Positions 4,635-49,866 of a stretch of DNA of 64,000 nucleotides are shown here, in pieces (within the stretch, counting starts at the first letter, position 1; each line of letters starts with the position of its first letter). Under the pieces are notes generated by a model. The model had not been told where the DNA came from and searched no databases. It was given only the letters and a program-made list of their open reading frames with translations. This DNA is from an uncultured Spirochaetales bacterium (GTDB lineage Bacteria; UBP6; UBA1177), in contig CAZVWR010000006.1 in NCBI GenBank assembly GCA_964630905.1, positions 6,232-70,231 on the forward strand. Reading direction: 5' to 3'. The translations under genes were made by a program, and so were the position numbers.

Positions 4635-4725
<91 letters not shown>

Positions 4726-4738
4726 TTTTTTTTATTAT

Positions 4739-4831: not shown

Positions 4832-4884
4832 TTCATTTTTTAAGGTTATTTTCAGAAAAATGACACTCGAGTTCACTTTTTGCA

Positions 4885-4943: not shown

Positions 4944-7268
4944 ATGGTTAAATTTCTTAACATTCGAGTGGGATTCAGAGTTTTGACAGTCGCAGTTGTT
5001 TTTTTTGTTTCTGCATCTCTAAGCGGCGAATCTTTTGTTTCAATACAGGGTTATCCTCAGGAAAGATCTGAAGTTCCCGATTATCAGTTCCAGACACAGA
5101 CAACCATGGTGCTTAACCAGACGATAGACAGGATCCTTTATCCGGTTATCGGTTTTCCGGCAATGGTCACAGCGGCTGATCCCGAAATGTCCTTCATAAT
5201 CCGGTCTGAGAATATTCCTGAAATAGATAACATCAGGATAGTTCGCGAAATAGGTGGCAATGTTAAAGAATTTCAGGATCTTATCCCTTATTCCATTGAG
5301 CAGTGCGGATCTGGTCTTTATAAAGTCAAGATGATAGTTCCGGTAATTCTTCCAAGTGTAAGATATGACTTGAGCGTTAAACTTAAAGGCGAAGAATTTC
5401 CAATTATATCAAGGAATTCTGTGTTCTTTTCTGAATTTGATGCGTCCACGAAATTTTTTATCTGGGCCGATCCGCAGATAGAGGACCTGCAATCAAAAAT
5501 GGCTGGAGATCTCAATTACAATTCGGGGGAATATCCTTACAAAAGCGATTCGATCCTCGATTTTTCCAGGCAGGAGGGGATCATAAAAACCACCATATCG
5601 AACCTTAACATGGGTGACCGCCATTTTGTTACAATGCTTGGTGACATAGTTTTCGGGATTAATTATCAGAGAGAATATGAAGACATTCTTTCACTCATTG
5701 TCAATCTTGAAATTCCGTTTTTCCCGGTTCCGGGCAATCATGACGGGTATGCGAAGTTCACTGAACAGAACAACCTTTTCTCGCCGCTTGACTGGGATGG
5801 TTTGCAGTACTGGACGAAATTTGTGGGTCCGCTTCACTATGCGTTCAATTTTAACGGGCAGACATTTCTGATGCTTAATACTTATGACGGAACTCCGCAA
5901 AGAAGGGCGGCAGGCGATGCTCTCGGAATTGGTGATAATGCGGCGGTGCCGGTCAGCAACTGGGGCGGATTCCTTACCGACAGGTCTCTTAGCTGGATAG
6001 AGATAATGATGGATGACTATGATGTTTTCGGCCTTTTCAGCCACATGCTGCCTCTTGGACAGAATGCGACAGGTCTATATCATCCGATGAGAAAATTCCC
6101 GAAAGATTCTATAAAATATAAAGAAAATCAGGAATGGAATATTGAAACTTCAGAATGGGACAGCGACCTGACTGATCTTATATTCAACGAAACAGATAAG
6201 ATTAATACAGGTGTCAAGACCGCTGAATATATGACAAAGCAGTCTCCGTCCCCGATATATTTTTCAGGGCATACCCATCAGGATAGAATATATCTTTTTG
6301 AAAAAGGGGAAGAACTTGTTCCTGAAAGCGGAGTTTTTGCTGCTGATGACATGGAATTTATAATGACTACAACTGCCGCTACAAGTGGTCAACTATATTG
6401 GGGATTCAGGAAAGTTGATGTCGGTGTGACGGGGGATGTTTCCTATAATTATACCTGCGGCAGAGGTGTAAACTGTATGCCCAGCAGTGAAACGGAAAAA
6501 GGTTTTCAGTCAGTTCCGGCAGGGAATATGTGGGTGACATACACATGGAACTCTTTTGGAAATGATAATGAATCGATCTTCACGGGCGGAGACGGATTTT
6601 CAGACACGGTAAATGCAGAGGTTATGAATTATCTGCCGACAGAGGAGCCGGTGACTTTGAGATTTTTTATGCCGGCAGGTAAAAGTTATAAGATCGAAAA
6701 TCCTAAGTTCCATATATCAAATGCGGCTGTTTCAAAGGATATGACAACTCTTATCCTGACAGTGAAGGGAAGTGTTGCCGCCGGTTCGGAAATGGATAAA
6801 TTCCTTGCGAAGGATTTTTCAAGGAAAGTTGAATTTGTAACAGTTACCCCGTCCACTGCGACAGCTGTTGAGCCGCAGATCGAATATCCGCAGACAATTT
6901 TTGAAGATGAGCCGCTAAGTGCTGAAGTTAAGAACGGTGATGATTTCCTTTCACTTGTCTGGATAAGGAACAAGATCGAGTTTGCACAGGGCGAGACCTT
7001 TTCTGTAAAGTTTGATAACTATCAGGATGTTGAGACGATCTTCCTTATTTATATTGATAAAAGCGGGGTTCACGGCACAGCACTCTTTAAAACTGATATT
7101 CAGAAGCGTCCTGAAGAAGAACCCGATGAAGAAGTATCTGAAGAAATTGAAGAAACCGCTGATCCCGATGTGACAGAAATTAATGAAATTCAGGAAGATT
7201 CCGATGAAGATTCCAACACAGAAGAACCAAAAAAGAAAAAGTCCGGCTGTTCAGTCACTGTGATTTAG
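4944..7268 (+). CDS. secreted metallophosphoesterase with acidic C-terminal spacer and SGCSVTVI tail
   Basis: ORF track 4917..7268. ATG 4944 is preferred because of GGAGAG about 6 nt upstream. Signal peptide MVKFLNIRVGFRVLTVAVVFFVSASLSG. Calcineurin-like motifs GDIVFG, PVPGNHDG and FSGHTHQD. The C-terminus is D/E-rich, then KKKKSGCSVTVI-stop. Confidence 0.8.
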   Translation: MVKFLNIRVGFRVLTVAVVFFVSASLSGESFVSIQGYPQERSEVPDYQFQTQTTMVLNQTIDRILYPVIGFPAMVTAADPEMSFIIRSENIPEIDNIRIVREIGGNVKEFQDLIPYSIEQCGSGLYKVKMIVPVILPSVRYDLSVKLKGEEFPIISRNSVFFSEFDASTKFFIWADPQIEDLQSKMAGDLNYNSGEYPYKSDSILDFSRQEGIIKTTISNLNMGDRHFVTMLGDIVFGINYQREYEDILSLIVNLEIPFFPVPGNHDGYAKFTEQNNLFSPLDWDGLQYWTKFVGPLHYAFNFNGQTFLMLNTYDGTPQRRAAGDALGIGDNAAVPVSNWGGFLTDRSLSWIEIMMDDYDVFGLFSHMLPLGQNATGLYHPMRKFPKDSIKYKENQEWNIETSEWDSDLTDLIFNETDKINTGVKTAEYMTKQSPSPIYFSGHTHQDRIYLFEKGEELVPESGVFAADDMEFIMTTTAATSGQLYWGFRKVDVGVTGDVSYNYTCGRGVNCMPSSETEKGFQSVPAGNMWVTYTWNSFGNDNESIFTGGDGFSDTVNAEVMNYLPTEEPVTLRFFMPAGKSYKIENPKFHISNAAVSKDMTTLILTVKGSVAAGSEMDKFLAKDFSRKVEFVTVTPSTATAVEPQIEYPQTIFEDEPLSAEVKNGDDFLSLVWIRNKIEFAQGETFSVKFDNYQDVETIFLIYIDKSGVHGTALFKTDIQKRPEEEPDEEVSEEIEETADPDVTEINEIQEDSDEDSNTEEPKKKKSGCSVTVI

Positions 7269-8188: not shown

Positions 8189-11100
8189 TTATTCAATAAC
8201 AGTCAGTTTTTGTGACTGGTCGTTATGTTTCTGTTCGGGGTTGTAGTATGGGTTGACTGATGATTCGCCGGTCGCCCCTTCCATCGGATAGTCTGCAAGA
8301 AGTTCAAAATTGAATGTAGCGGTCGCGCCGTTTGCGATGTGGTTGATGTAGAGTATCACCTGTCTTGGTGTGGTTTCATATTTCTGGAGATATGTTCCTG
8401 CTTCAACAGCGGTATCAAGCTGTGCCGGAATAAGTGTGAATCCCGGTGCGATACCGATGCTTGCAAGGACCATGCTCACTCCGGCGTCACTTACATTTTT
8501 AACTGTGACTGTGACTCCGACTGTATCGTTCACATTCAGAGAGGTCTTGTCATAGTTGACATCAATCGTGAGCGGACCTGTTGAAGTGTCATCTTCACCC
8601 GGAATGTACCATGTTGCGGTTGCCTGATACATCATGCTTCCTTCACCTGTGAAATTGATCTCGATATTGTTCTCACCGTAAACAAGGTGCTCTTTGAAAT
8701 CGATCAGACGGAGCACATCAGAGTTTTCAGGAGTGATGACTATTGTGGTTTCAGGTGAACCGTTAGCACTCACTTTTACAGTCGCGTCAGCTTCTGAAGT
8801 GCCGTTGTTGAGCGATTCGATCATGAATCTCAATGCAAGGATAGTTCCCTGAGTCGTTGACCAGTTGCCGAAAGAATCCTTCTGTCTTACAAGCCAGTTA
8901 AGTATCTGACCTGCAACATCTGAATATCCGCCTTTGTCAAGAAGGAGAAGTCCTATAAGAGCGGTCGTTTCAAGATTTGCTCCATCGCCACTGCTGTAAG
9001 TCTCTGTATTTACAGTCTGTTCCCAGTGTGCTCCACCTTCTTCATCTTCGATTTTCTTGTCGAGGATGTCGCTGATGAGCTTATTTATGACAGTTGCACT
9101 TCCACCATTTTTTACAAGTGCGATAGCGGTCATTGCCATTGAATATGTGTCTTCAGCTTTTGAAGCGTTGTTTTCAAGATATTTCACAGCGTTCTTTCTT
9201 GCAGTTTCCTCTTTGTCAGCCCTTGAAAGTGCCCATGCTCCATAAGCTGTTGTTCTTAAAAGTGAATTCTCAAAATTATTTATCGCCCCTTCAGCAATTC
9301 CGCCGCTAGTAGGAATAAATGACCCGTCAGAGTTCTGTTTTGAAGCCATCCATGCCGCAGTTCTTGTGATAATGGCAGGATCGACCTCGTGGACTGCGCT
9401 CATGTCAACAAATTCAAGAAGTCCGTAAGCAGTGAGAACAAAATGGGCAGGTTCAGCACCGAACCATTCAAATCCGCCGCCAGTGACTTCATAAGTGAGA
9501 AGCCGCTGATAACCCTGAGTTATGAAATCCCTTGCCTTAAGCTCGATCTCAGGGGTCAGGGTATCCGTTGCGATCATGTACTGAAGCACAAGAATGTTCG
9601 GATATGTAGCAGATGAAGTCTGTTCAAAACAGCCGTAAGGCATCTGGAACATCGAATCAAGCCCTTCAACAGCCTGAGACATGATGCCGGGATAGATTTT
9701 AACAAAAAGTTCAGCACTGTCAGCGATCGCATTTTCAGGAATTGTGATCGTAATGCTCTTGTTTCCGTTCAGCAGTGCACTTTCCGATTTGTCAGCCATT
9801 ATTCCGTCAGGTTTTACGGTGACACTTCTTTTCACAGCGTCTGACATTTTTGAACCGTGTGCGAATACTGTGAGAGAGTGTTTTCCTATTTTAAGAACTT
9901 TTATCGGGAAATATGCGGCTGAAACCGAATTTGCCGGAACTGTCACTTCAATCGCGGATGAGCCTGTCATTTCAAACCACTCCTCAGAATCGGCTTCAAG
10001 AGTAATTTTCTGAGATTCATTAAGGTAATTGTAAATTCCGACAGGAACAGCAACTTCATCGTTTTGCGTAAGGAAAACAGGGAAATCAATGTCAACGAAG
10101 AAATCCTGGAAAACTCTTATGCTGTCAAGAGAACTGCCAAGACCGCCGTTCAAGCTGTTGGCAAGAGATGTAACTCTCCATGTGGTAATTGAGTCAGCCA
10201 TCAGCACTTCAAGTTCAGCGACGCCCTTTTCATCAGTAATGAGCTGAGGATTGTAGTAAAGCGTTTCAGGGAACCATTCACGAACTTTAACTTTTGCATT
10301 CGGTTCACCGCCGGTATCCCCTGAATCACCGCTGTCTCCGTTATCTTCAGGATCCCCGCCCGTTGCCGCTTCATCGCTTACCTCACCGTTATCCATTTCG
10401 CCCCATTGTGCTTCACAGACCTTTATTTCCATTGTGATGTCGTCTTTTGTTCCTGCTGTTTCATCAGGTCCTGCCGAGATCAGAGTTGCAAGAGCTTTTT
10501 CGTAATCTGCGGTTCCGGGAGTTCCCGACATGATGTTGTCCCACGGGTCGGTGTTTTCAGGTTTTGCGAGTATTTTATCAAGTTCTTCCTCAGAGATCGC
10601 TCCGTTTGTGCAGTCAGAAGTTTCGCCGTTATCAAGAGCTTTAAAAATTGCATCAGCTTTTGCTTTTGCCGCCGCCGTAGAAGCTGAAAGATATGCGTTT
10701 TCAGATTGGGAGTAGTCATCCGCCGCAACGCCGTGGCTTAAATTGCCCGCATTTCCTGCAAAGAACGCATCGGCTTTCTTTTCAATCTCTTCTGCCTGTT
10801 CTTCATCTTCAACAGGGGTTACGATCTCTTCATAACTTGTGCCGTAGATCGCATAAGTCGATTCCATCACAGAACTTTCGATGTTGAAATATGTCTGTTC
10901 CATTCCCGGAATGAAATCCATCACATGGAAGACGGCTTCATCAACCATTGCAACTCCGAGTGCCGCAACGACCGGTTTACCTTCAGCATCTTTTATTTTG
11001 AACTGCGCTTTTGCCGTTTCTCTAGGCTTATATTCTTCTTTATCAGTAGAGAATTCGATATTGAGCGAACTTGATCTTCTTACATACACTCCCTTGGAGG

Positions 11101-33612: not shown

Positions 33613-34587
33613 TTATTTAAATATATGTCCGATCCTTTTTAAACGGAGGTCAATGACATCAAGAATGCTTTCGCCAAACTGAACTGAAAACCAGACAAAT
33701 AGCGGTTTTCCCTGAAGGTTTTCTCTCGGGACAAATCCCCAGTATCTGCTGTCAAGACTGTCATCACGGTTATCACCCATGACGAAATAATTTCTTTGCG
33801 GGACTGTGAACGATCTGTTGCAGTATTTGCAGTACTGCTCGATCTCTTCTCTTCTCTGCTCGTTTATCGCATCGTTATAGATCACTTTATACTGTCTGCC
33901 GTTCTCATTTGTTTCAATGAACTGCGTTGTTGTTGCTTTTTCGCCTCTTGATGAGGTGTAGGTCACTTTGCCTGAAAATTCCCTGATGAGCTTTTTCCCG
34001 TTCACATAGACATCTGTTCCGCTTAGAAGGATGGTGTCTCCGGGAATCCCGACAACTCTTTTAACGAGTGCTTTTTTCTGCGGTTCCGGCTCAGTGAAAG
34101 TGATTATTTCGCCCCTTTGCGGATCTGAAAACTCAACGAACTGATTTTCAGCGAAAGGAAGTGTAAGACCGTAAACGAACATTGCCACAAAAAGATTATC
34201 GCCTATTTCGATTGTATTTACCATACTTCCCGTCGGAACGCGGTATGAACCGATCACAAAGAATTTAAGTACAAGTGCAATGAGAACAACAAGCCACAGT
34301 TCATCAAAAAGCTCGGCGAGTGCGTTCTGTTTATATTTGTCAAAATGGAGCTTGAAGTTGTGATCTATGTCATAAAGCAGTTTCTGTGCATCTTCGAGCT
34401 TCGCATGTCCTGTCTGGTGTTTTCTTATAAGTTCTTCCGTTGATTCAAGATTTGAAACAATGCGCTTTTCGACAGTTTCAGGCAGAAGTTTCCGTTTCTT
34501 CTTTATCCAGCCCATCTGCCTTTGTCTATTCTGGATCTTTTTAATCAGCTTGTTGAGTTTCATTTTTGTAAACATCACCGCCTCCAA
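33613..34587 (-). CDS. lepB: signal peptidase I with long Lys-rich N-terminal extension
   Basis: 324 aa. Catalytic Ser context VPTGSMVNTIEIGDNLFV, Lys context VKRVVGIPGDTI, and GDNRDDSLDSRYWGFV. The single TM helix sits only at about residue 95. Confidence 0.85.
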   Translation of the reverse strand: MEAVMFTKMKLNKLIKKIQNRQRQMGWIKKKRKLLPETVEKRIVSNLESTEELIRKHQTGHAKLEDAQKLLYDIDHNFKLHFDKYKQNALAELFDELWLVVLIALVLKFFVIGSYRVPTGSMVNTIEIGDNLFVAMFVYGLTLPFAENQFVEFSDPQRGEIITFTEPEPQKKALVKRVVGIPGDTILLSGTDVYVNGKKLIREFSGKVTYTSSRGEKATTTQFIETNENGRQYKVIYNDAINEQRREEIEQYCKYCNRSFTVPQRNYFVMGDNRDDSLDSRYWGFVPRENLQGKPLFVWFSVQFGESILDVIDLRLKRIGHIFK

Positions 34588-34641: not shown

Positions 34642-36471
34642 TCAGATCACTGAACAGCCACAGCCGACTTCTTCTTCGTCTTCCGGGATGTTTTCTTTGT
34701 CTGAAGAGGTATCACCGGTGTTTCCTGTGTCGGTGTCATCGTTAGCGCTGTTGCCTGTATCTCCGGTGTTGCCGGTGTCGTCTGGAACTTCAACTTCTCC
34801 TCCGCATGCCATACTTTCAGGTTTGTAGAGCATGTTCTTCACCTTTTTTTCATCCATCGGTTCACAGGTGTTGTCAAAAGTGACTCTCACGGGAAGGCCC
34901 TGATTGGTTTTATATGCCTGTCCTTCGCCTGTTTTTGCATCCCAGATGGAAGCTGAATTGGTAAACGAGGCATTTTTGGGTGCTTCATCAGAAGGTTTTA
35001 CAAGAAATCTCAAAAGTATTCTGTCACAATCTGCCTCATTTTGACAGATATTAAATGATTCTGAGATCTTAAGTCCTGCTTCAAGAGGAAATCCGCCATT
35101 GTCAGAAAAGTCCTTGAAGCATGTTCCGGTTCCGGTTTCATCTATCTGGAAGGTACCGGGGATATAAGACTGTATACCCGAAACAACATCTTTCACCATT
35201 ACCGATTCAGCCGGCTCGTGGCCGTGATTTTCGACAACTATCTGATATCCGAAAATGGTTTTGGGACATACTTTGTCACTCTGGGAGAGGGGAGTGAGGA
35301 TGAACTTTTCGTTTTTCTGCGGAATGTCAAAAGCTGGAAGTCGCGTATCAACAGACAGGATCACATAGTTTGTGAGGACAATATCAGCACCGGTCTTGAT
35401 GTAGAAATTCATGGAGTTCGTGCCGTATTGAAGGTGAGGGTTAAAGATGGAATCGGGAACTTCAGGATCGTACTGAAGAAAAAAAGTATCGACATCAAAT
35501 GAAAGCTCAGTCCTGCATTCGGATTGTTCACCTTTATAATTGATCGTTCTGAACTTGCTGTTAAAAGGCTGATTAAGAGGATTGCATGCCTGATCACCGA
35601 TCTCACCCAGAACAAGAGCAGAAGGAGCAAGACCTCCCTGAAGTTCAAGAGATTCAGGAGCTTTAAGGTAGTCATCTCCGTCACTTGTAACAAATGATAT
35701 TTTTACAGCTGCATTTTCAGGAAGTTCAAAATTTGAGATATTTATGGTGGTCGGATTACTTGTGGTATTTGAGCTCCAGTCCATGCCGCTGTACAGATAG
35801 ATCCGTTTTCTTGCGATCTGCGATGAACCGTAAATGAAAATAAGCTGCCAGCCGCCGATCATACTTGCACTGGAGCAGTATGCGTGATCGATTCCACTTA
35901 ACTGACAGTCGTAGATGTCGTCAACTCCTTTCACATTGTATTCGCCGGTCATGGGCTTTATTTCACCTGAATTGATGTCATACTGCATTTCCCTGATAAT
36001 GTCAGTCACGTCAACTCTGTAAACATAATAGTAGTATTTGGACATGAGTTCGGTTTTATAATATGATTCAAACTCAAAACCCTGCGTGGAAGCTGTATTT
36101 CCCTGCAAAGTCGCAGTAACGGTGTGTTCACTGCCGTCAGGAATTGTAAGCGTTACTGAATTGTCTGTAAGAGCCATTTTGTCTGAATCGTTGACAGAGG
36201 CAAACCAGACTAATATTGCTTTTTCGATTACAGCATCTGCAGGAACATCTGTATCAAGAAGAAAGTCAGAAGCACCCGTTATGCCGATTGAAGTGTCGCC
36301 TTGAGGTTCATACTGAGAATGGTCTGCAGTATCAAGAAGAAGTGATTTTGAAATGATGAAATAATCAAAAGCTCCTTCATATTCCATGATGGGCAAGTTG
36401 CTTATCGGCAGAGCTGAAACTGATAATAATAACAATGTGTTGAGAACAAGTGACTTCGTAAGATTTTTCAT
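34642..36471 (-). CDS. secreted DUF11-containing protein with acidic spacer and GCGCSVI C-terminal tail
   Basis: 609 aa with a signal peptide. DUF11-like segment (VENHGHEPAESVMVKDVVSGIQSYIPGT). C-terminus is PDDTGNTGDTGNSANDDTDTGNTGD...EDEEEVGCGCSVI-stop. Paralogue of 45943..47910. Confidence 0.7.
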   Translation of the reverse strand: MKNLTKSLVLNTLLLLSVSALPISNLPIMEYEGAFDYFIISKSLLLDTADHSQYEPQGDTSIGITGASDFLLDTDVPADAVIEKAILVWFASVNDSDKMALTDNSVTLTIPDGSEHTVTATLQGNTASTQGFEFESYYKTELMSKYYYYVYRVDVTDIIREMQYDINSGEIKPMTGEYNVKGVDDIYDCQLSGIDHAYCSSASMIGGWQLIFIYGSSQIARKRIYLYSGMDWSSNTTSNPTTINISNFELPENAAVKISFVTSDGDDYLKAPESLELQGGLAPSALVLGEIGDQACNPLNQPFNSKFRTINYKGEQSECRTELSFDVDTFFLQYDPEVPDSIFNPHLQYGTNSMNFYIKTGADIVLTNYVILSVDTRLPAFDIPQKNEKFILTPLSQSDKVCPKTIFGYQIVVENHGHEPAESVMVKDVVSGIQSYIPGTFQIDETGTGTCFKDFSDNGGFPLEAGLKISESFNICQNEADCDRILLRFLVKPSDEAPKNASFTNSASIWDAKTGEGQAYKTNQGLPVRVTFDNTCEPMDEKKVKNMLYKPESMACGGEVEVPDDTGNTGDTGNSANDDTDTGNTGDTSSDKENIPEDEEEVGCGCSVI

Positions 36472-37790: not shown

Positions 37791-40700
37791 TTATGAATCG
37801 AGCGTGCAGCCCTCATCTATCTGACCGTTACAGTTATTGTCTTTTTCATCACAAATTTCAGGTTCCGGAATGCAGCCGGGAGGAGGAGGACAACCTTCAT
37901 CAATTTCACCGTCACAATCGTTATCTATTCCGTCTTCACATATTTCAGCCTCTGGAACACAGACATCGCAACCCTCGTCAATGTCACCGTCACAGTCGTT
38001 ATCTTTTGTGTCACAGCTTTCCGGTTCAGGGACACATGTCGGATCGCATCCTTCATCTATCTTTCCATCGCAATCGTTGTCTTTGTTATCTCCGCATATT
38101 TCAGGGCTTGGAATACATGTCGGGCAACCTTCGTCCACATTACCGTCACAGTCATTATCTGTTTTATCCCAGCAGATTTCCGGTTTCGGTATGCAACCGC
38201 CGCTTCCAGGGCATCCTTCATCAACAGATCCGTTACAGTCGTTATCTATTCCGTCACCGCAAACTTCAGGACCTGTCGGGACACAGCTTGGGGTACATCC
38301 TTCATCGATCATGCTGTTGCAGTCGTTATCTATTCCGTCACCGCAAACTTCAGGACCGGTGGGAGTACAATCAGGAGTTGTCGGGCATCCTTCATCTATC
38401 TGTCCGTTGCAATTGTTATCTATTCCGTCACCGCAAACTTCAGGACCTGTCGGGACACAGCCGGAATAAGTGCAGCCCTCATCAACTATGTCATCACAGT
38501 CATTGTCAAATCCGTCACAGACTTCAGGCTGAGGAATACAAGTCGGACAACCATTGTCAACAATTTCGTCGCAGTCATTATCAAGTCCGTCTCCGCAGAT
38601 CTCCGGTTCGACAATACATCCGCCCGGATCGCAGTTTTCATCGATCAGTCCGTTGCAGTTGTTGTCAATGCCGTCATCACAGACTTCGGGGCCTGTCGGA
38701 ATACATGCAGGACATCCATCATCAATGATTCCGTCGCAGTCGTTATCAGTATTATCTCCGCAGATCTCCCATCCGCAGTCACATGTTATTCCGTCATCAA
38801 CGAGTCCATTACAGTTGTTGTCCTGATAGTCACACACTTCATTTGTCGGGGTGCAAGTAACCTTACATGCAACTCTAATGTTTACACCTACTTTGGAAGG
38901 ATCACTTGAAGAAGAAGCATAACTCTTGAGGTCGTTGCATGACTGTCCATTCAGTTCAAGAGTCTGTGTTCCGCCATCATATGTCCATCCGTTCGGAGTC
39001 CCGGGTGCTACAGAATAGAAAGTTCCGTTATTATCAATTCTTACCTGCATTCTTGTCGGGTCGTCGTTGCCTCCGTTAAGAGGAACTGTGACAGTGCACG
39101 GTATCATGGAGGCAGAAATTGAATTAAGTGCCGCAATGATGCTGTTGGTGTCAGTGATCTTATACCATGTGGTTGTTCCGCCTGCCGCAGCAAGTTGTAC
39201 CATATTGCTTTCGTTAACTCCTGCAAATCCCATATAATAAACTTTTATTCCGGCATTTTTAAGATTCGTTGTGTAAGTCAGTGCGTCAGACATACTGAAA
39301 TCGGCTGATTCAGCGTCTGTAATGACAACAACTGCCTTTCCTCTATCTGCAGAAAGGGTATCAGGTGTAAATTCGTAGTATTGTCTGATCCTTGTGTTGT
39401 TAAGTGCATAAGGAAGCGGTGTTCCTCCGTTAGGGGAGACATTGCACGGACTAAAATTGGCAAATGTAACATTATTTCTTAGATCGATACACTCTTTCGG
39501 TTCATCACTGTCACTGCTTGTTCCCGGAAAGTATGCTGCTCCGACATTAAAATCTGTTGAGAGCTGAGTGGCTTTTGAATTAAGAGCAGACATCAGCACT
39601 TCCCATCTGGTTCCGGGATCATTGCATTCACCCCATCCGTCATCTCCGTTTGTGCAGGCATCCATCGATCCCGAATTATCAAGAAGGAAGTAAACATTGG
39701 GCTTGATCCTTGTTCCGGTGACATCAGCGGTTTCACAAGGTGTCGGGACAGTTATTGCTTCACAGGCATCACCGATCCCGTTTGCAGGATTTGTGTCAAC
39801 CTGATTAAAGTTTGCTATATTGGGGCAGTTGTCACAGACATCACCCACACCGTCACCGTCTGCATCAGCCTGTCCTGCATTTGAAACTTCAGGGCAGTTG
39901 TCATAAGGGTTTTCAACTCCGTCACCGTCAATATCATTGTCATACGGTTCCTCTTCACAGGCATCACCGGTTCCGTTACTGTTTGAATCTGCCTGATTGA
40001 AGTTCGCGGCAAGAGGACAGTTGTCACAGACATCGCCTACACCGTCACCGTCAAAATCAGCCTGTCCTGAATTGCTTACGGATGGGCAGTTATCAACAGA
40101 ATTAGGAATAGTGTCTCCATCGCTGTCAGCACATGCGGAAGGATCCTGATTTGCATTTGCAACAGTAGGACAGTTGTCGCACACATTGCCGACTTTGTCA
40201 CCGTCGCTGTCTTCCTGATCCGCATTGGCAAGGGTCGGGCAGTTGTCTTCCCAGTCATAAAGTCCGTCATTGTCTCCATCTGCATCAGCACAGACTGTCG
40301 GATCCTGATCGGCATTCGGAATTGCAGGACAGTTGTCACAGGCGTTGCCGACTTTATCTCCATCTGTATCAAGCTGATCAGCATTGGCAACGGAAGGGCA
40401 GTTGTCTTCCCAGTCAAAAAGCCCGTCTTTATCCGAATCAGCCGCTTCACAGGTCGCTATATCCTGATTGGCATTCGGTATAAGAGGACAATTGTCGCAT
40501 GCGTCACCGACACCGTCTTTATCTGTATCTGTCTGTGAAGGATTTGAAACCGTCGGACAGTTGTCGTCCCAGTTGACAAATCCGTCACCATCGACATCAA
40601 TTGTTGCAGATTCACAGGCATTACCTGTTCCGTTGCTGTTACTGTCTGCCTGATTGGCATTTGCAATTGCAGGACAGTTGTCACAGACATTTCCCACCCC

Positions 40701-42440
40701 GTCCTTGTCTCCATCTTCCTGTCCGGGATTATAAACATCTGGACAGTTATCGTCCCAGTTGTAAAGTCCGTCGTCGTCAGGATCTGCATCTTCACAGGCG
40801 TCACCGATACCATTGCTGTTTGAATCTGTCTGAAGAGCATTAGCGATCGGAACGCAGTTGTCACAGGCATCGCCTATTCCATCACCGTCAGTATCTGTCT
40901 GAGCGTCATTGGAAACAGTCGGGCAGTTGTCATAAATATCATCTATACCGTCGCTGTCGCTATCGGTAACAGCAGGTTCACAGGCATTTCCAGTGCCGTT
41001 GGTGTCATCATCAAGCTGGTTGTAATTTGCCACATTTGGACAGTTGTCACAGACATCGCCGATCCCGTCTTTATCTGTATCAAGCTGATCATTGTTTGCA
41101 ATATCCGGACAGTTGTCGGTAGCATCAACAATTCCGTCACTGTCGCTATCGGTATTAAGCGGACTTTCCTGACAGACATCACCCATTCCGTTGCTGTCAG
41201 AATCAAGCTGATCATAATTCGCAAAAAGAGGACAGTTGTCACATGCATCTCCAAGAAGGTCGCCGTCGCTGTCTTTCTGGTCAGAATTCGGAACTGTCGG
41301 ACAATTATCAGCACTGTCAAGGATACCGTCGCTATCTGTGTCAACATTCTCACAGGCGTTTCCTTCTCCATCGGTATCATCATCAAGCTGATCGGCATTT
41401 GCAACGGCAGGGCAGTTATCACAGGCATCACCCACACCGTCACCGTCTGAATCGACCTGACCGGGATTATGAGTGTTTTCGCAGTTGTCAGATTCGTCAG
41501 GAATACCGTCCCCATCCTTGTCATTGGGTTCGCAGGCGTTCCCTACACCGTTTCCGTCATAGTCAAGCTGTTTTGAATTTGCTACTTCAGGACAGTTATC
41601 GCAAATATCACCGATTCCGTCTTTGTCAAGATCTTCCTGATCCGGATTGGATGCATATCTGCAGTTATCATTAAAATCAAGGATTCCATCCTCATCTGTA
41701 TCAACAGGTTCACAAGCGTCACCTACATCGTTGGAATCCGAGTTTATCTGATCGTGGTTTGCTGTATAGACGCAATTGTCACATACATCACCAATGCCGT
41801 CACTGTCTGTATCAAGCTGATCTGAGTTTTCGATGAAAGGGCAGTTGTCAACAAGATCTCTGAATCCGTCATGGTCTGTGTCAAGAAGGAGTGTATCGTT
41901 CTGGCAGACATCACCGACACCGTCCTTATCTGTATCGGTCTGTTTAATATTGGCGTGATTCGGGCAGTTGTCACAGACATCACCTTTTCTGTCTTTGTCA
42001 GCATCGAGCTGGTCGGCATTTTTGATGTCAGGACAATTATCATTGCAATCCATAATCCCGTCACCGTCTGTATCAAAGTCAAGAACATCGCATCCGCAAA
42101 TTCCGGGATCTGTTTTTTCAGGATTGTCGGGACAGAGGTCGATTATGTCTTCATCTGTTTCAACAATATTGTCCGGGTCTTCATTGTCAACAGGTTCATC
42201 ATCATCCGGAATAACCTCGTTATCTTCAGGCTGATTATCATCTTTTTTCACAGTATCCTTGTCGGGAACTGTAACTTCATCATCTGTTACAGGAAGGGAG
42301 TCTGACGAACCTTCATCATCGGTAATGTTGTTTGTGTCATTACCGCCTGTGTTGTCATCAACCTTGCTTTTTTTCCCGCTGTCACAGGATGCAAAGAAAA
42401 TAATTGAAAAGATTACAATAATAAAAGAAAGTTTCTTCAT
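37791..42440 (-). CDS. giant lipoprotein: thrombospondin type-3 repeats + vWA domain + MopE-like DNDCDG repeats
   Basis: 1549 aa. Lipobox FFASC. By my count, 26 DNC-containing TSP3-like units (DxDxDGxGDxCDNCPxxxNxxQxD). vWA MIDAS YFLLDNSGSMD. 13 C-terminal units of the type CxPxPEICGDGxDNDCDGxIDEGC. Confidence 0.85.
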   Translation of the reverse strand: MKKLSFIIVIFSIIFFASCDSGKKSKVDDNTGGNDTNNITDDEGSSDSLPVTDDEVTVPDKDTVKKDDNQPEDNEVIPDDDEPVDNEDPDNIVETDEDIIDLCPDNPEKTDPGICGCDVLDFDTDGDGIMDCNDNCPDIKNADQLDADKDRKGDVCDNCPNHANIKQTDTDKDGVGDVCQNDTLLLDTDHDGFRDLVDNCPFIENSDQLDTDSDGIGDVCDNCVYTANHDQINSDSNDVGDACEPVDTDEDGILDFNDNCRYASNPDQEDLDKDGIGDICDNCPEVANSKQLDYDGNGVGNACEPNDKDGDGIPDESDNCENTHNPGQVDSDGDGVGDACDNCPAVANADQLDDDTDGEGNACENVDTDSDGILDSADNCPTVPNSDQKDSDGDLLGDACDNCPLFANYDQLDSDSNGMGDVCQESPLNTDSDSDGIVDATDNCPDIANNDQLDTDKDGIGDVCDNCPNVANYNQLDDDTNGTGNACEPAVTDSDSDGIDDIYDNCPTVSNDAQTDTDGDGIGDACDNCVPIANALQTDSNSNGIGDACEDADPDDDGLYNWDDNCPDVYNPGQEDGDKDGVGNVCDNCPAIANANQADSNSNGTGNACESATIDVDGDGFVNWDDNCPTVSNPSQTDTDKDGVGDACDNCPLIPNANQDIATCEAADSDKDGLFDWEDNCPSVANADQLDTDGDKVGNACDNCPAIPNADQDPTVCADADGDNDGLYDWEDNCPTLANADQEDSDGDKVGNVCDNCPTVANANQDPSACADSDGDTIPNSVDNCPSVSNSGQADFDGDGVGDVCDNCPLAANFNQADSNSNGTGDACEEEPYDNDIDGDGVENPYDNCPEVSNAGQADADGDGVGDVCDNCPNIANFNQVDTNPANGIGDACEAITVPTPCETADVTGTRIKPNVYFLLDNSGSMDACTNGDDGWGECNDPGTRWEVLMSALNSKATQLSTDFNVGAAYFPGTSSDSDEPKECIDLRNNVTFANFSPCNVSPNGGTPLPYALNNTRIRQYYEFTPDTLSADRGKAVVVITDAESADFSMSDALTYTTNLKNAGIKVYYMGFAGVNESNMVQLAAAGGTTTWYKITDTNSIIAALNSISASMIPCTVTVPLNGGNDDPTRMQVRIDNNGTFYSVAPGTPNGWTYDGGTQTLELNGQSCNDLKSYASSSSDPSKVGVNIRVACKVTCTPTNEVCDYQDNNCNGLVDDGITCDCGWEICGDNTDNDCDGIIDDGCPACIPTGPEVCDDGIDNNCNGLIDENCDPGGCIVEPEICGDGLDNDCDEIVDNGCPTCIPQPEVCDGFDNDCDDIVDEGCTYSGCVPTGPEVCGDGIDNNCNGQIDEGCPTTPDCTPTGPEVCGDGIDNDCNSMIDEGCTPSCVPTGPEVCGDGIDNDCNGSVDEGCPGSGGCIPKPEICWDKTDNDCDGNVDEGCPTCIPSPEICGDNKDNDCDGKIDEGCDPTCVPEPESCDTKDNDCDGDIDEGCDVCVPEAEICEDGIDNDCDGEIDEGCPPPPGCIPEPEICDEKDNNCNGQIDEGCTLDS

Positions 42441-45942: not shown

Positions 45943-47910
45943 ATGAAAATAAAAACAGTTTCTTTTTTGTTTGTTGTGTTTTTCTGCACGGCATTAAGCG
46001 GGGTAATACACGGAAATATGATCGGTGGTGATCCGTATGAAAGCTGGGAAGACGGCGGACAGGATTTTTTCGTAATGTTCAACTCAAATATTGATAACAA
46101 ACTGACTCTTTTCGGTGAAGATACTGACAATCCGCAGGGTGATACCTGTGTTGATGAAAGTTTGTTCACTCTTACCGATTTTCATATTCCCGAAGATGCG
46201 ATAATCGAAAAGGCATATCTCATCTGGATGGGGGCAGTGGATCCTGCAAAGTTTGATGATCCGACAGACAACAGTGTAAAGCTTAAGTTCATTCAGGAAT
46301 CTGAACTTGATCCTGTCATCCATGAAGAAACCGTGACAGCCGGAACAACAGGGAAACTTTTGACAGATACTGGAAGTTTCGAGTTTGAATCGCTTTATTT
46401 TCAGGATGATGTGAAAAATGGATGCAGTGAATCGGAAGCTGGTCAAATTATTAAGGGACAATATCTCGGATATTTCACATATCGAGTTGATATTACTGGT
46501 TTTTTTGACAGAATTTCTGAAATGAACGCGGAACTGGAAAGACCTGAAGACGGGAAGTATTACGGAACTTATGTTTTCAGTGATCTTGACTGTACTGAGC
46601 ACGATTATTACCGGTGCAGCAATAAAATGTTAAGTTCATGGGCGATTTTCATTGTTTACCGTTCACAGCATATCAGACCGCAAAGGGTATATTTCTACAA
46701 CGGTCTTGCTTTCATCCATGGTGACAAATCAGTTGCATCAATCAGCGGTTTTGAACTCCGGAGAAACCCGTCCATCCATCTTACAACGATGATCGCAGGT
46801 GGAGATATCAAACCTGTAGAATTAAATCTTCCGGAAGAAGGAATTTTACTTCAAGGTGAAGGTGCCACGAGCAGGTTCCGTCTTTACAACGAATGCAATC
46901 CTCTTATGGGAAGCTATGTCGAGGTTTTTAATTCCGTTTCATCGATCGCAAACTGGAGTCTTGATGCGACAGAAAACATTAAATGTGTTTCCAATTTCGG
47001 TATTGATGTAGATACATTTGTTCTTGATAGTGATGACATCAATCTTCAGGAGCATTTGAAAAAAGGTAACACTTCAATGGAAATTACTCTTTCAGTCAAT
47101 CAGGATGAGATATTCACTAATTTCATGGTTCTTTCAGCTAACCAGACAGCAGAAGGTCCAAATTTCGATATTCCGCCTGAAGCAAGCGACCCGTCAAAAT
47201 CTCAGTTCAATTTTCCATATGACCGCGAAAAACATTTCTGTGCATGTCCATCAAACGATGATGGAAAAGTTAAGGATTATTACTGCGAAACTGTCAACAG
47301 CAGAAGGGAGTTCTTTTATTTTATCAAAGTTCAGAACTGGGGTGAAGATGATGCGGAAGATGTTGTGGTGAGTGATGAGCTTGATAAAAGTCTTGAATAT
47401 ATTCAGGGATCTACTGAAATGGCGACACAGTATTCTCCTGAACTTGATGTCTATACGGACTGGAAATTAATTCCTGACAAACCTGATGGAGTTTTTCCTC
47501 TTTCCGGAACAGGTTATAAAGTTGCTTCAAAAATGCTTTCGTGCGATCAGAGCAACTGGACATGTCAGGATACAGTTTTTATCAGATATAAAGTTAAGCC
47601 GAAAGCAGGTATGCCCAAAAGTTATTATTTTTCAAATATTGCTCTTATTAAAGACAAAAACAGCGATGAAGCTTATAAAACCAACCTGTCATATCCGCTT
47701 AAACTTAATCCCACAACCTGTGAAATTGACACAACCTGTCCTGCTCCGACCAGAGAAATGTGCGGAGGAGCTCCTTATCCATGCGGACCTGAGGATATTC
47801 CTTGCGATGATTCAGACAATATTGAAAACAATGATAATGACAACATAATTGATGACGAAAACTCAGATAATGATACAAATTCAACAGGTTGCGGCTGTTC
47901 TTTTTTATAG
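45943..47910 (+). CDS. secreted DUF11-containing protein with acidic spacer and GCGCSFL C-terminal tail
   Basis: ORF track 45931..47910. ATG 45943 follows GGAGGG. Signal peptide. Shares with 34642..36471 the blocks P.DA.IEKA.L.W, TDNSV.L, FEFES.Y, YRVD.T and W.(L/I)F(I/V)(I/V)Y. DUF11-like NWGEDDAEDVVVSDELDKSLEYIQGS. The D/N-rich tail ends NSTGCGCSFL-stop. Confidence 0.7.
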   Translation: MKIKTVSFLFVVFFCTALSGVIHGNMIGGDPYESWEDGGQDFFVMFNSNIDNKLTLFGEDTDNPQGDTCVDESLFTLTDFHIPEDAIIEKAYLIWMGAVDPAKFDDPTDNSVKLKFIQESELDPVIHEETVTAGTTGKLLTDTGSFEFESLYFQDDVKNGCSESEAGQIIKGQYLGYFTYRVDITGFFDRISEMNAELERPEDGKYYGTYVFSDLDCTEHDYYRCSNKMLSSWAIFIVYRSQHIRPQRVYFYNGLAFIHGDKSVASISGFELRRNPSIHLTTMIAGGDIKPVELNLPEEGILLQGEGATSRFRLYNECNPLMGSYVEVFNSVSSIANWSLDATENIKCVSNFGIDVDTFVLDSDDINLQEHLKKGNTSMEITLSVNQDEIFTNFMVLSANQTAEGPNFDIPPEASDPSKSQFNFPYDREKHFCACPSNDDGKVKDYYCETVNSRREFFYFIKVQNWGEDDAEDVVVSDELDKSLEYIQGSTEMATQYSPELDVYTDWKLIPDKPDGVFPLSGTGYKVASKMLSCDQSNWTCQDTVFIRYKVKPKAGMPKSYYFSNIALIKDKNSDEAYKTNLSYPLKLNPTTCEIDTTCPAPTREMCGGAPYPCGPEDIPCDDSDNIENNDNDNIIDDENSDNDTNSTGCGCSFL

Positions 47911-47987: not shown

Positions 47988-48332
47988 GGGGACGACATGG
48001 TTTCGACGGGGAGGCTGGAGCTTTCAAGTTGCATGCCGAGGCGCCGCTGGCCTCGTAAAAAGCGGCAAAACAAGAAAAGCAAATAATTTTGCACTAGCAG
48101 CTTAAGCTGCTCGTCAGTCTGCGGTAATTCTCGCGGCTTCAGAACTGGCGCTAAACAGCGGGATAGCAAACTGAACCCCTCCGCAGGGTGAGGTAAGCGA
48201 AATCAAGTGCGGAAAAGTGTGACGGATCCTGCTGCCGGGAGCCCGATCACTTACTAAATCGGACAGCTAAGCATGTAGACGCTCGATTGACCCCCTTTTC
48301 GGACGCGGGTTCGATTCCCGCCGTCTCCACCA
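47988..48332 (+). ncRNA. ssrA: transfer-messenger RNA
   Basis: 5' GGGGACGACATGGTTTCGACGGGG. Tag reading frame ends GCAAATAATTTTGCACTAGCAGCTTAA (…ANNFALAA-stop, stop at 48103..48105). 3' tRNA-like end GGACGCGGGTTCGATTCCCGCCGTCTCCACCA. Confidence 0.9.
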
Positions 48333-48446
48333 TTCGACTCGCTAAAGCTTTGGTTGGCAAAATATTCAAATTTATTCCTTTGACATAATTTTTTCTTAAT
48401 AGTATTCTGTTTTGATTGTTCAGTGTGTGATAATAAGGAGAAAAAA

Positions 48447-49013
48447 ATGGTTAAAAGATTCGATCCTGCAAAACTGCATGAGCTTGTGAAAGAAGTGGCA
48501 AATCTGGAAATGCCGAAAGAGGAGAAGTTCAAACTGCTTGTTCAGAAAATTGATCATGAATATCCCGGGAAGCTCAACAGAAAGGAATTTTCGTGGATCT
48601 TCAACAATGCTAACGGAGCAATGGGGATTATGACACTTTTATACGGATCTCTGAGCGAATATCTCATAATTTTCGGTTCACCGATCGGGACTGAAGGACA
48701 TTCAGGAAGATACTGGGCGAATGTTCACGACATAATGATCGAAGGGGAGATGTGGACTTATGATGAAGGAACTATTGACCGCAAGGTTTTCAAGCCGGGT
48801 GACTGGGCGCATCTGAAGTTCAGAAGATCAAAGGGCTACTGCATCCGCGAAGAAGGCTGGATGCTTGAATATACATCGGGCGCTATTCCTACAATGCTTC
48901 CGATGGGAATATGGGACAACCTTTTCAGCAATCTTGACCTCAAAAGCGTAGTTCAGCTTTTCTGGCAGTACGGCGGCATGGTGATAAAAAATCTGTTAAG
49001 AGGAAGATTCTGA
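48447..49013 (+). CDS. ERG2 / sigma-1 receptor family protein
   Basis: ORF track 48423..49013. ATG 48447 follows AAGGAG. By-eye alignment with the recalled human sigma-1 receptor: [47 protein letters not shown] vs [47 protein letters not shown], and [12 protein letters not shown] vs WMVEYGRGVIPS. Confidence 0.8.
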   Translation: [188 protein letters not shown]

Positions 49014-49017
49014 AAAT

Positions 49018-49866
49018 ATGAAGGATTATTTTTCAAAATTTTCCTTTCTGCTGGACCTTGTTTCTTTCGGTGCAGTAGTAATTTTTGCAAACTATATGGA
49101 ATGGACGGCAAAAGATCTGCTATGGAGTTTGTGGATAAGCAGTCTGACAATCGGTTATTTCACTCTTTTAGCAGGTATCGGCGGAAATATGATCAGGGGA
49201 AGGATGGCTGATGAGCAGATCCCACAGAATGAAAGTAAAAACGAAAAGCAAGTTCCACCAGGAGCACCTCTTGCTGTGTTTTTCCTTATACCGATCGTGG
49301 CAATATTCCGGTTTTCAATTATCACCCTTATTTTTGCTGTTTTAGCCGCAATAAGTGTTACGGCGGCAGTCATTAAGTACAAAAGGGAACGGGCAGGACT
49401 GGATAACGACCATTTTTTAATCAATTTTATGCTTAATTTCCCAGCCGGTTTATTTCTACTCATTTTTTTTACGATCCATTTCGGCGGATTTCATTTTGTC
49501 CACAGCATTTTTCTTAACGGCATGTTCCCGATATTAAATGAAACTCCGTTCGGTAAGACTCCCGGTCAAACCGGATTTTTCTTTTTTGATCTAATTGAGG
49601 TAAGCTTCCGTAATTACTGGCTTTTTATTGTTGCAAGCGCCGCGTCATCATTTGAGAGCATTTTTAAAACGATGAAAGGGCGTGAGATAAATTTCATGCT
49701 TGAGCCGTATAAAAATGTCGTAAAAATGCATTTAATGATTTTTGTCATCGCCTTTGCAGGAATGGCAGGACTTTATAATTTCATACTTTATGCAACGCTC
49801 ATCCTCTATTTTTTTCCTGTCGGGAAAATGATCAGAAAAAAGAAAACAGATGCTGTCTCTGTTTGA
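49018..49866 (+). CDS. polytopic membrane protein, unknown function
   Basis: 282 aa with about 7 hydrophobic helices. Starts 4 nt after the ERG2-like gene, suggesting an operon. No family recognised. Confidence 0.6.
   Translation: MKDYFSKFSFLLDLVSFGAVVIFANYMEWTAKDLLWSLWISSLTIGYFTLLAGIGGNMIRGRMADEQIPQNESKNEKQVPPGAPLAVFFLIPIVAIFRFSIITLIFAVLAAISVTAAVIKYKRERAGLDNDHFLINFMLNFPAGLFLLIFFTIHFGGFHFVHSIFLNGMFPILNETPFGKTPGQTGFFFFDLIEVSFRNYWLFIVASAASSFESIFKTMKGREINFMLEPYKNVVKMHLMIFVIAFAGMAGLYNFILYATLILYFFPVGKMIRKKKTDAVSV

Follow-up and report, generated by a model that had tools for sequence, protein, structure and literature searches.

A short C-terminal cysteine tail conserved on unrelated exported proteins of UBP6 as a candidate sorting or anchoring tag

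We have found that unrelated exported proteins of the bacterial lineage UBP6 share a genuine and conserved tag at the very C-terminus, in which an invariant cysteine is followed by a few mostly hydrophobic residues and then by the stop codon. Three such proteins lie in the window, i.e., the whole stretch of 64,000 nucleotides that was analysed. The reading that we favour, with a probability of roughly 0.55, is that these tails are a lineage-wide C-terminal sorting or anchoring tag of UBP6, which corresponds to the motif of the tripartite Cys-type signal of the same lineage.

The sequence-only reading of the window had described three ORFs with a common Cys tail, and their coordinates and the endings GCGCSVI, GCGCSFL and SGCSVTVI are borne out (Table 1). 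Its ATG starts also match the public gene calls (P0121, 774 aa). As it had said as well, each protein has a signal-peptide-like N-terminus and a D/E/N/T-rich linker. Protein 1 starts with a signal peptide, continues with two beta-rich regions of adhesin/pilin-like character, among them a DUF11-like domain, and ends in the linker and the tail. Protein 2, a DUF11-domain paralogue of protein 1, has 655 aa when counted from the ATG and 659 aa when the TTG at 45931 is taken as the start. Protein 3, with 774 aa from the ATG or 783 aa if the TTG at 4917 is used, is an exported metallophosphoesterase (Pfam Metallophos). In structure prediction the linker and tail are disordered, while structure comparison of the folded part gives likeness to sortase-anchored pilins and adhesins. 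A gene for an S26 signal peptidase, probably the housekeeping LepB, adjoins protein 1. It is kept only in the close relatives of the window and has been rejected as a linked enzyme.

Table 1 Positions of the three tailed proteins, their linkers and their tails in the window.
Feature	Positions	Strand	Details
Protein 1	34642..36471	minus	609 aa, C-terminal end EDEEEVGCGCSVI
Protein 1 linker, acidic, low-complexity, disordered (residues 559-602)	34666..34797	minus	sequence, pLDDT ~30
Protein 1 tail GCGCSVI	34645..34665	minus	translation; stop TGA at 34642-34644
Protein 2	45943..47910 (ATG) or from 45931 (upstream TTG)	plus	C-terminal end NDTNSTGCGCSFL
Protein 2 linker, D/N-rich	47806..47886	plus	sequence
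Protein 2 tail GCGCSFL	47887..47907	plus	translation; stop TAG at 47908-47910
Protein 3	4944..7268 (ATG) or from 4917 (TTG)	plus	C-terminal end KKKKSGCSVTVI
Protein 3 linker, acidic, KKKK at its end	7107..7241	plus	sequence
Protein 3 tail SGCSVTVI	7242..7265	plus	translation; stop TAG at 7266-7268

For a background rate, 352,076 internal positions were taken as pseudo-termini, which gives a rate of 9.3e-4 for the tail pattern. On this background, the probability of finding at least three tails among the 55 ORFs of the window is 2e-5. Enrichment over background, which had been proposed as a check, is also found in the window and related loci together (1.33 Mb of related DNA, UBP6 / "Ca. Asafiota"): in this sample, collected around a single bait family, 63 of the 938 ORFs carry the tail where 0.87 are expected (binomial p ~4e-93). 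The 63 tails are not restricted to the bait family, since 26 of them fall into six further unrelated clusters, i.e., S8 subtilases, a metallophosphoesterase, one family of ~500-aa and one of ~1000-aa proteins, and two singletons. Signal-peptide-like N-termini are present in 54 of the 63 tail ORFs, as compared with 409 of the 938 overall, and the other nine tail ORFs are apparently partial or likely have miscalled starts. We regard the tag as confined to signal-peptide proteins. That is, the earlier description of three proteins in one window was too narrow, as the tag is used across the UBP6 phylum, a lineage known only from MAGs. In the loci collected around protein 3, one further tail, that of a paralogue, was seen among 49 flanking ORFs, which suggests that genome-wide usage may be modest, perhaps 1–5%.

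The motif was derived from 196 non-redundant short tails and compared with 58 long tails, i.e., those of the tripartite form. The short-tail consensus is charged residues (D, E or K), then G-C-[SA]-Φ-x-Φ-Φ, then the stop: the cysteine is present in 100% of the tails, glycine precedes it in 90%, and S, A or T follows it in 98%. The linkers ahead are 83% polar and 35% acidic, compared with 51% and 13% at other C-termini. Short tails finish 3–6 residues past the last cysteine, and the final residue is I, L, F or V. The earlier suggestion of a CaaX box does not hold as a rule. The spacing C-a-a-X fits the last cysteine of proteins 1 and 2 but not that of protein 3, and exactly five residues follow the last cysteine in 145 of the 196 tails (74%), whereas three follow it in only 11. 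In GCGCSVI, it is the first cysteine that occupies the consensus position.

That the cysteine stands at a nearly fixed distance from the free carboxylate suggests recognition of the chain end itself. This would suit a recognition signal without lipidation, where a PDZ-type protease, a secretion system or a surface receptor reads the free C-terminus together with the cysteine, and where the outcome is release, secretion or non-covalent docking. Non-polar C-termini are classical PDZ ligands in tail-specific proteases, which fits as well, as does the result that no lipidation enzyme is linked to the tail genes in the sampled loci. However, the invariant cysteine and a core common to the TM-anchored signal point to thiol chemistry of the MYXO-CTERM kind, and tethered surface proteins typically stand on long acidic stalks. 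We regard such a recognition signal as quite unlikely.

The tail is strongly kept where its surroundings are not. About 106 of 108 full-length homologues of protein 1, down to 42% identity, retain it, and the two that do not are short, apparently truncated entries. Similarly, nearly all of the full-length homologues of protein 3 (about 75) keep the tail, with orthologues ending in a K-rich stretch followed by [SK]GC[SA]xxx[ILF] and the stop, while the upstream linker is not conserved in either family. The family of proteins 1 and 2 has members with short and members with long tails. Among relatives, protein 2 has its closest homologues in proteins of ~1050 aa that carry the long tripartite tail (72.7% identity in locus L062), and many representatives of 620–690 aa carry short ones.

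These data bear on the reading that the tails are non-functional remnants, i.e., decayed or truncated long signals, or artefacts of assembly or gene calling. Such a reading could refer to the nearest homologues of protein 2, which are ~400 aa longer and have full tripartite tails. Against it, the tail is kept over ~40–100% identity in two unrelated families, its motif positions are 90–100% conserved beside hypervariable linkers, and more than 180 independent assemblies agree on it, which excludes assembly truncation. Also, no TM helix with a basic cluster is encoded in any frame beyond the stops of proteins 1–3, where the sequence-only reading had likewise seen no TM segment. We further scanned 180 nt beyond each of the 63 short-tail genes for nonsense truncation. 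Of 17 hydrophobic-plus-basic matches, most belong to the following gene, being its signal peptide or N-terminus, and the rest were inspected individually; the one apparent remnant, in locus L070, is antisense to another gene. Recent nonsense truncation of long tails is rejected, since no TM remnant lies downstream of these genes. An alternative genetic code or read-through is rejected as well, in agreement with the sequence-only reading, because all three stop codons are in normal use in the window, all three terminate short-tail genes, and nothing TM-like lies past the stops. Judged from the conservation data, the remnant reading is effectively refuted.

In the same genomes, and often in the same loci, we observed 62 proteins with a full tripartite signal, which consists of a G-C-[AS]-Φ-x-x-Φ core, a polar spacer, a TM helix and a K/R cluster. 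The short and long forms lie within ~20 kb of each other in 16 loci, and the 58 long tails have the common core G-C-[AS]-[VI]-x-x-[VAL]. When the two forms are compared by sequence, the short tag ends exactly where the long form goes on with its acidic spacer, TM helix and K/R cluster. As both share the same core, the short tail can be read as the Cys-type signature motif without the membrane anchor. The kinship to the Cys signature of MYXO-CTERM that had been proposed is supported by this full form, and in addition by protein 3, whose distant, high-GC homologues at 24–28% identity (P0203–P0207) carry a classical MYXO-CTERM (GC[AG]SCS, TM helix, RRRRR).

The boundary between the two forms also allows a reading in which the sorting protease cuts the long form between +5 and +6, behind its hydrophobic pentapeptide, and the short tail is a gene-encoded copy of the mature C-terminus, which skips the protease and goes straight to modification or receptor binding. 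Position +6 is the stop in 179 of the 196 short tails, with a single D kept there in a few, and it is E, D or P in 43 of the 58 long tails. Moreover, the polar spacer between motif and TM helix resembles that of LPXTG signals, a contrast drawn by Haft (10.1101/2023.06.07.544157). Yet a CPBP/Rce1-type cut would be expected directly distal to the modified cysteine, and at +3/+4 the short tails are more hydrophobic than the corresponding segment of the long form. We consider this pre-cleaved state unlikely. The greater hydrophobicity suggests that the short tails may have diverged in function from the long-form motif.

A tail of 5–7 residues is too short to span a membrane, so that the inner-membrane holding step of the long form is missing, which counts against the favoured reading. 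It is conceivable, though we hold this only tentatively, that the short tail suffices by itself as an extracytoplasmic 'C-x5' signal for lipidation and anchoring, a bacterial periplasmic counterpart of CaaX. The modifying enzymes of Cys-type sorting signals would then read no more than the cysteine and a hydrophobic C-terminus of five residues, and MYXO-CTERM-class signals could dispense with the TM helix and basic cluster, which would act as a mere tether.

Disulfide tethering, in which the tail cysteine bonds to a membrane-anchored long-form partner or to an envelope protein, might be suggested by the CxC seen in 44 of the 196 short tails and in 22 of the 58 long ones, and by the frequent adjacency of short- and long-tail genes. 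However, most tails have a single cysteine, and unrelated enzymes such as the S8 protease and the phosphoesterase are tagged without a long-tail neighbour in the window. Many of the tail-bearing organisms, according to record titles, come from reducing anaerobic habitats, e.g., rumen and digesters, which likewise disfavours a disulfide. This makes the disulfide reading very unlikely.

For a processing enzyme, we looked for CPBP motifs in every protein of the sampled loci that is predicted to have four or more TM segments, without a match. Pfam found no CPBP among 20 membrane proteins near tail genes either, which were instead transporters, BrkB, Lgt, M50, M48/HtpX, BacA and UbiA. Lgt is thus encoded in the lineage. 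One Rce1-like CPBP gene was found, only in locus L022. Its best NCBIfam likeness is to MrtJ and MrtS, with Mrt scores far under the cut-off; it has no counterpart in the other loci, and no match to the myxosortase core model NF040914 is listed for it within the 1.33 Mb of loci. Overall, the tail genes in the sampled loci show no consistent linkage to a CPBP, rhombosortase-like or acyltransferase gene, and when the 938 ORFs were clustered by neighbourhood, no further recurrent candidate came up.

A membrane UbiA-family prenyltransferase encoded beside tail genes might be thought to attach a prenyl group to the cysteine in a CaaX-like manner. In 12 rumen-clade loci a three-gene cassette is kept despite different flanks, comprising the protein 1 orthologue and an S8 subtilase, both with short tails, and the UbiA enzyme, which keeps its Asp-rich motifs intact at identities down to 46%. 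In addition, the enzyme that lipidates Cys-type signals is an open question (PMC11980579). On the other side, this subfamily is limited to one clade and is absent from the window and from the loci of its close relatives. Its 44%-identical orthologue in the MAG SLOD01 is not near any tail gene, and the UbiA beside a tail gene in locus L021 is only 26% identical and has lost one motif Asp. Furthermore, the UbiA enzymes that are known draw on prenyl diphosphates of the cytoplasm and have small molecules as acceptors. UbiA as a general tail enzyme is therefore rejected, the cassette being kept in the rumen clade and not generally, and S-prenylation by it seems most improbable.

The sequence-only reading knew of no described equivalent, and this stands: NCBIfam, Pfam and the literature (on MYXO-CTERM/myxosortase, CPBP/lipidation and UBP6) gave no TM-less form, and no NCBIfam or Pfam model covers the short tail. 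We compared the tail with the criteria for tripartite C-terminal sorting signals in 10.1101/2023.06.07.544157. It occurs on at least seven unrelated clusters whose members mostly (54 of 63) have signal peptides, and homologues elsewhere carry another signal (MYXO-CTERM in the case of protein 3), while the motif-TM-basic architecture is absent in the short form and present in the long form.

Among known systems, MYXO-CTERM (TIGR03901; MrtX, MrtC, MrtP) resembles the tail in an invariant cysteine in G-C(-G-C) near the C-terminus, in its use on many unrelated signal-peptide proteins per genome with a disordered linker ahead, and in its occurrence at the same position on the distant homologues of protein 3. 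Unlike it, the short tail has neither TM helix nor Arg cluster and gives no match to TIGR03901 (cut-off 20 bits), and the host is UBP6 and neither Myxococcota nor Bradymonadales. The long form of UBP6 also stays below that cut-off (at most 15.9 versus 20), with a polar spacer before the TM helix and a basic cluster that is K/R-mixed, not Arg-rich. JDVT-CTERM (NF033191), likewise a Cys-type tripartite signal, is the best-scoring NCBIfam model for the long tails (26.1 bits versus 27), and its protease MrtJ (NF033192) is the best NCBIfam match of the Rce1-like protease in L022. However, JDVT-CTERM is found about once per genome, adjacent to its protease, and its TM helix contains a DP motif nine residues after the cysteine, whereas UBP6 has many clients per genome, no linked protease, no DP motif and, in the short form, no TM helix at all.

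The eukaryotic and archaeal CaaX box (Rce1-type CPBP) shares with the tail a cysteine at a short and fixed distance from the free C-terminus, with aliphatics after it and no TM helix, and myxosortases are Rce1 homologues. But the UBP6 spacing is C+5, not C+3, its substrates are exported while those of CaaX are cytosolic, and no FTase/GGTase is implied. The N-terminal lipobox of Lgt/Lsp is similar in the [SG]-C-[SA] core and the invariant cysteine beside a hydrophobic segment, and Lgt is present in the lineage as noted. In contrast to L-[ASTVI]-[GAS]-C at the end of the N-terminal h-region, the UBP6 tag is C-terminal with inverted topology, has charged residues before the cysteine and about four hydrophobic ones after it. 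LPXTG/sortase signals differ in motif and chemistry and in the TM helix and charged tail that the short form lacks, and UBP6 has diderm-typical features (N-terminal lipoproteins, Lgt).

Under the favoured reading of a lineage-wide tag, the layout would be a charged boundary, G-C-[SA] and four mostly hydrophobic residues on a long disordered acidic stalk. The protein would be exported by Sec, and the hydrophobic tail would place the invariant cysteine at the periplasmic face of the inner membrane. There, by analogy with MYXO-CTERM, the enzymes of the long form would act on the short tail, namely an Lgt-like enzyme that lipidates the thiol, perhaps joined by a protease of the CPBP/Rce1 type that would strip the residues after the cysteine. 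In the end the protein would stand on its acidic stalk, tethered by a lipid and probably located at the cell surface. In MYXO-CTERM the cysteine is needed for MrtX cleavage, the working model is lipidation, cleavage distal to the cysteine and T2SS export, and Lgt is the leading candidate for the lipidating enzyme (PMC11980579). One protease superfamily serves both long (MYXO-CTERM) and short (CAAX) signals (Haft, 10.1101/2023.06.07.544157). By this analogy, lipidation of the cysteine and surface tethering by the long-form machinery are likely, and we infer cleavage of the tail and surface localisation on the same grounds.

Throughout the phylum UBP6, many unrelated exported proteins carry just the signature motif, beside others with the full form. 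To our knowledge, all described prokaryotic C-terminal sorting signals are tripartite, e.g., LPXTG, PEP-CTERM, PGF-CTERM, GlyGly-CTERM and MYXO-, JDVT-, Synerg- and CGP-CTERM, and the function assumed for their TM helix is that of keeping the substrate at the membrane, where an intramembrane sorting enzyme can act on it. Should the motif work by itself, recognition would not require the TM helix, and the gap between CaaX processing and myxosortase-type sorting would be smaller. It would also provide a minimal tag of 7–8 residues for finding the Cys-modifying enzyme, the enzyme that modifies the invariant cysteine of MYXO-CTERM being an open question in the field (PMC11980579). If the C-x5 reading is true, UBP6 would hold both states, as a natural experiment joining MYXO-CTERM-type sorting and CaaX. 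Annotation pipelines that seek tripartite signals will miss such presumed surface proteins of UBP6 in rumen, digester and sediment.

By direct translation, we have found the three ORFs and their tails as the sequence-only reading had described them. All three have hydrophobic, signal-peptide-like N-termini, and a D/E/N/T-rich linker precedes each tail. The G+C content of the window is 41%, and TAA, TAG and TGA are all ordinary stops. The claimed absence of a hidden TM segment past the stops also holds, since no frame downstream of the three genes encodes a TM helix with a basic cluster.

Coordinates of the features discussed (window positions, or positions in related UBP6 loci where an L number is given)
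Feature	Position	Strand	Remarks
Protein 1	34642..36471	(-)	609 aa; ends ...EDEEEVGCGCSVI; stop TGA
Protein 2	45931/45943..47910	(+)	ends ...NDTNSTGCGCSFL; stop TAG
Protein 3	4917/4944..7268	(+)	ends ...KKKKSGCSVTVI; stop TAG
tmRNA gene	47988-48332	(+)	immediately 3' of protein 2
Four tRNA-Ser, one tRNA-Arg, small SRP RNA	3720-4834	(+)	just upstream of protein 3
S26 signal peptidase I	33613-34587	(-)	directly downstream of protein 1; ~90-residue basic N-terminal extension
ERG2 / sigma-1-receptor-like protein, then DUF6498 multi-TM protein	48423-49866	(+)	ERG2-like: Pfam E = 1.8e-58
1627-aa lipoprotein	8189-13072	(-)	GCFEQ thioester-like motif
1549-aa lipoprotein	37791-42440	(-)	thrombospondin-type-3-like and Cys-rich CxxDNDCDGxxDEGC repeats
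UbiA cassette (example)	L013:9974-14653
Rce1-like CPBP protease	L022:14075-14710	(-)	PF02517, 51.7 bits
Open frame past a tail gene's stop	L070:11789-11950		~50 codons

The tag peptide given by ARAGORN for the tmRNA (GAKQRDSKLNPSAG) looks wrong; the translated frame ends in ...KANNFALAA and a stop, a typical tmRNA tag ending. Mechanical ORFs at 4562-4885 have been rejected as proteins, being translations of the tRNA and SRP RNA genes. The ERG2-like protein is unexpected in a bacterium. The 1627-aa lipoprotein looks from its sequence like a bacterial alpha-2-macroglobulin. The DEGCTLDS end of the 1549-aa lipoprotein (DEGCSIDS in L004) is the end of its last repeat and has been rejected as a tag.

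For the enrichment analysis, the tail pattern was defined as [GAS]-C, an optional second xC, a small residue and a short end of mostly V/I/L/M/F/W, from which charged residues and Pro are barred. Its background rate is 9.3e-4 (352,076 internal pseudo-termini), and at this rate 3 matches in 55 window ORFs have p = 2e-5. GTDB species genomes were scanned with the protein-1 family alignment, yielding 79 loci (1.27 Mb), all from unclassified MAGs. These include 'bacterium UBP6_UBA1177/UBA1196/UBA1209' and many rumen and gut MAGs, as well as digester and sediment MAGs to which submitters gave the label Spirochaetales or Sumerlaeota; 'Candidatus Asafiota' is the name given to UBP6 (PMC11382960). The window and these loci together amount to 1.33 Mb and 938 ORFs (minimum length 90 aa), of which 63 carry the tail where 0.87 would be expected (p ~4e-93), in a sample biased by the fact that all 79 loci were obtained via one protein family. 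When this bait family is excluded, 26 of the 63 tails remain, in six more clusters that share no similarity with one another: S8 subtilases (16 of the tails), the metallophosphoesterase, one family each of ~500 aa and ~1000 aa, and two singletons. Signal-peptide-like N-termini are over-represented, at 54/63 of the tail ORFs vs 409/938 overall; the remaining nine are apparently incomplete ORFs at the ends of loci or ORFs with a probably miscalled start. In addition, polar residues make up 83% and acidic residues 35% of the 32 residues before the tail, compared with 51% and 13% at other C-termini. The suggestion of a real tag is borne out in related MAGs and extends well beyond the three window proteins. 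Genome-wide, probably a few percent of proteins use the tail, not more, since in three loci obtained with protein-3 orthologues the 49 flanking ORFs include only one further tail, which belongs to a paralogue.

Conservation is seen in two unrelated families. The window's protein 1 is also recorded in an NCBI contig (101 kb) and one Logan assembly. Of the 120 homologues listed for it, those of full length down to 42% identity are P0001-P0108 without two entries that are short and apparently truncated; their C-termini consist of an acidic linker and a tail, for example DDDSGCALTLI, DDAGCALIFI, VGCSCSVVSF or GCGCSLVM. In about 75 homologues of protein 3, a metallophosphoesterase unrelated to protein 1, the tail (SGCSAIIL, KGCSITVF, GCGCSVVF and similar) follows a K-rich stretch. 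In both families, the linker is hypervariable and the tail is kept.

We have aligned 196 non-redundant short tails with the last Cys as position 0 (100%). Positions -6 to -3 are D/E/K-rich, -2 is S/G/C, -1 is G (90%) and +1 is S/A/T (98%), followed by L/V/I/A at +2, I/T/L/V at +3, I/F/L/V at +4, I/L/F/V at +5 and the stop at +6. Five residues follow the Cys in 145/196 tails (range 3-6), 12/196 have one extra D, and 44/196 have a CxC doublet. The proposed likeness to a CaaX box (C+3) cannot be generalised; it is a by-product of the doublet, since the Cys five residues from the end of GCGCSVI and GCGCSFL is the first one, not the last.

Truncation would make the tails artefacts. Stops after the short tails use all three codons in about genomic proportions, and no decayed TM-plus-basic segments lie in the 180 nt that follow each of the 63 tail genes; most downstream hydrophobic-plus-basic matches are the next gene's signal peptide or N-terminus. 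The sole in-frame case, past the stop of a GCGCSVI gene in L070, encodes a hydrophobic stretch and KRFFFRKNK; the opposite strand there carries the 3' end of a 612-aa gene, so that this is probably a coincidence.

The same genomes carry a complete tripartite C-terminal signal on 62 proteins (for example, ...DDGGCAVSALPETSNSTLYVVLAALASMLALAAAKLFASKK), whose core, G-C-[AS]-[VI]-x-x-[VAL], is that of the short tail. At +6, where the short tail stops, the long form has E/D/P instead, then about six polar residues that lead into a TM helix and a K/R cluster. Both forms occur within ~20 kb in 16 loci. In the protein-1/2 family, members of ~600-700 aa mostly have short tails and those of ~1000 aa mostly long ones, with exceptions both ways. 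The ~1000-aa long-tail paralogues form tandem arrays of up to four genes (L037, L061, L048, L052 and others), which often adjoin ~400-aa or ~500-aa short-tail proteins, so that both tail types stand side by side. In relatives, protein 2 is matched most closely by long-tail proteins of ~1050 aa (L062, 72.7% identity), which is domain and tail turnover inside the family and not an artefact: protein 2 possesses a linker of its own and a canonical tail, and the stretch up to the tmRNA gene neither has space for a longer form nor contains remains of one. The scores of the long tails fall slightly short of the curated cut-offs, with 26.1 vs 27 for JDVT-CTERM and 15.9 vs 20 for MYXO-CTERM; the short tail matches no curated NCBIfam model. 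Protein-3 homologues at 24-28% identity (P0203-P0207) bear a textbook MYXO-CTERM end with GCASCS..., a TM helix and RRRRR. The relation to MYXO-CTERM that had been proposed is supported. Judged from this shared core and these homologues, the short tail is the evolutionary counterpart of a Cys-type sorting signal, cut to its signature motif.

As a modifier of the Cys, a UbiA-family prenyltransferase is suggested by gene order. In 12 rumen-clade loci (L006-L018), a short-tail protein-1 orthologue, a short-tail S8 subtilase and a ~270-aa UbiA protein with intact NxxxDxxxD and DxxxD motifs form a cassette, kept despite different flanks. However, this subfamily is restricted to the rumen clade and the window lacks it; the orthologue in MAG SLOD01 has no linkage to tail genes, and in L021 a distant UbiA paralogue adjoins the tail gene. 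We have treated the link as a clade-specific association, not a general mechanism.

For MYXO-CTERM, the Cys is needed for cleavage by the CPBP/Rce1-type myxosortase MrtX, and in the working model the protein is exported by Sec, retained in the inner membrane by its TM helix, lipidated at the Cys (Lgt being the leading candidate, not an established enzyme), cleaved distal to the Cys and carried to the surface by the T2SS (PMC11980579; 10.1101/2023.06.07.544157). Since the motif is homologous and the long form coexists, the most economical reading of our analysis is that short-tail proteins would share the long form's Cys-directed machinery; the hydrophobic pentapeptide would stand in for the TM helix and bring the Cys to the membrane. 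Alternatively, the long form may be cut at +5/+6 and the short tail may mimic the cleaved product, which fits the sharp stop there. As for candidate enzymes of a shared machinery, the UBP6 lineage encodes Lgt (L028) and many N-terminal lipoproteins. The sole Rce1-like protease in 1.33 Mb, in L022, is separated by 2.3 kb from a protein-1 orthologue with a short tail, has QEFLYRG as first motif and is most similar in NCBIfam to MrtJ and MrtS, far below cut-off; the remaining loci hold no counterpart. No Lgt or Rce1-like gene is consistently linked to tail genes in the window and 79 loci, as would be expected of a housekeeping enzyme that serves many clients. Four closely related loci (L050, L054, L058 and L064) have long-tail genes at a distance of 3-4 kb from a gene for HtpX/M48, a protease whose clan includes the type I CaaX protease Ste24; plain synteny is the probable reason. 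The S26 signal peptidase beside protein 1, an adjacency kept in L005 and L020 but not in more distant relatives, is probably housekeeping LepB.

To our knowledge, the described prokaryotic C-terminal sorting signals are all tripartite. A TM helix is presupposed in Haft's criteria (10.1101/2023.06.07.544157) and in both myxosortase papers. In agreement with the initial impression that no equivalent had been described, NCBIfam release 20, Pfam and the literature searched contain no TM-less Cys tail; we therefore rate the UBP6 short tail as a previously undescribed TM-less variant among Cys-type C-terminal sorting signals, and in UBP6 even the long form is uncatalogued. The short tail differs from MYXO-CTERM in lacking the TM helix and basic cluster, in scoring below cut-off and in lineage, and from the CaaX box in spacing and compartment. 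Although it falls outside both definitions, it may work like either of them.
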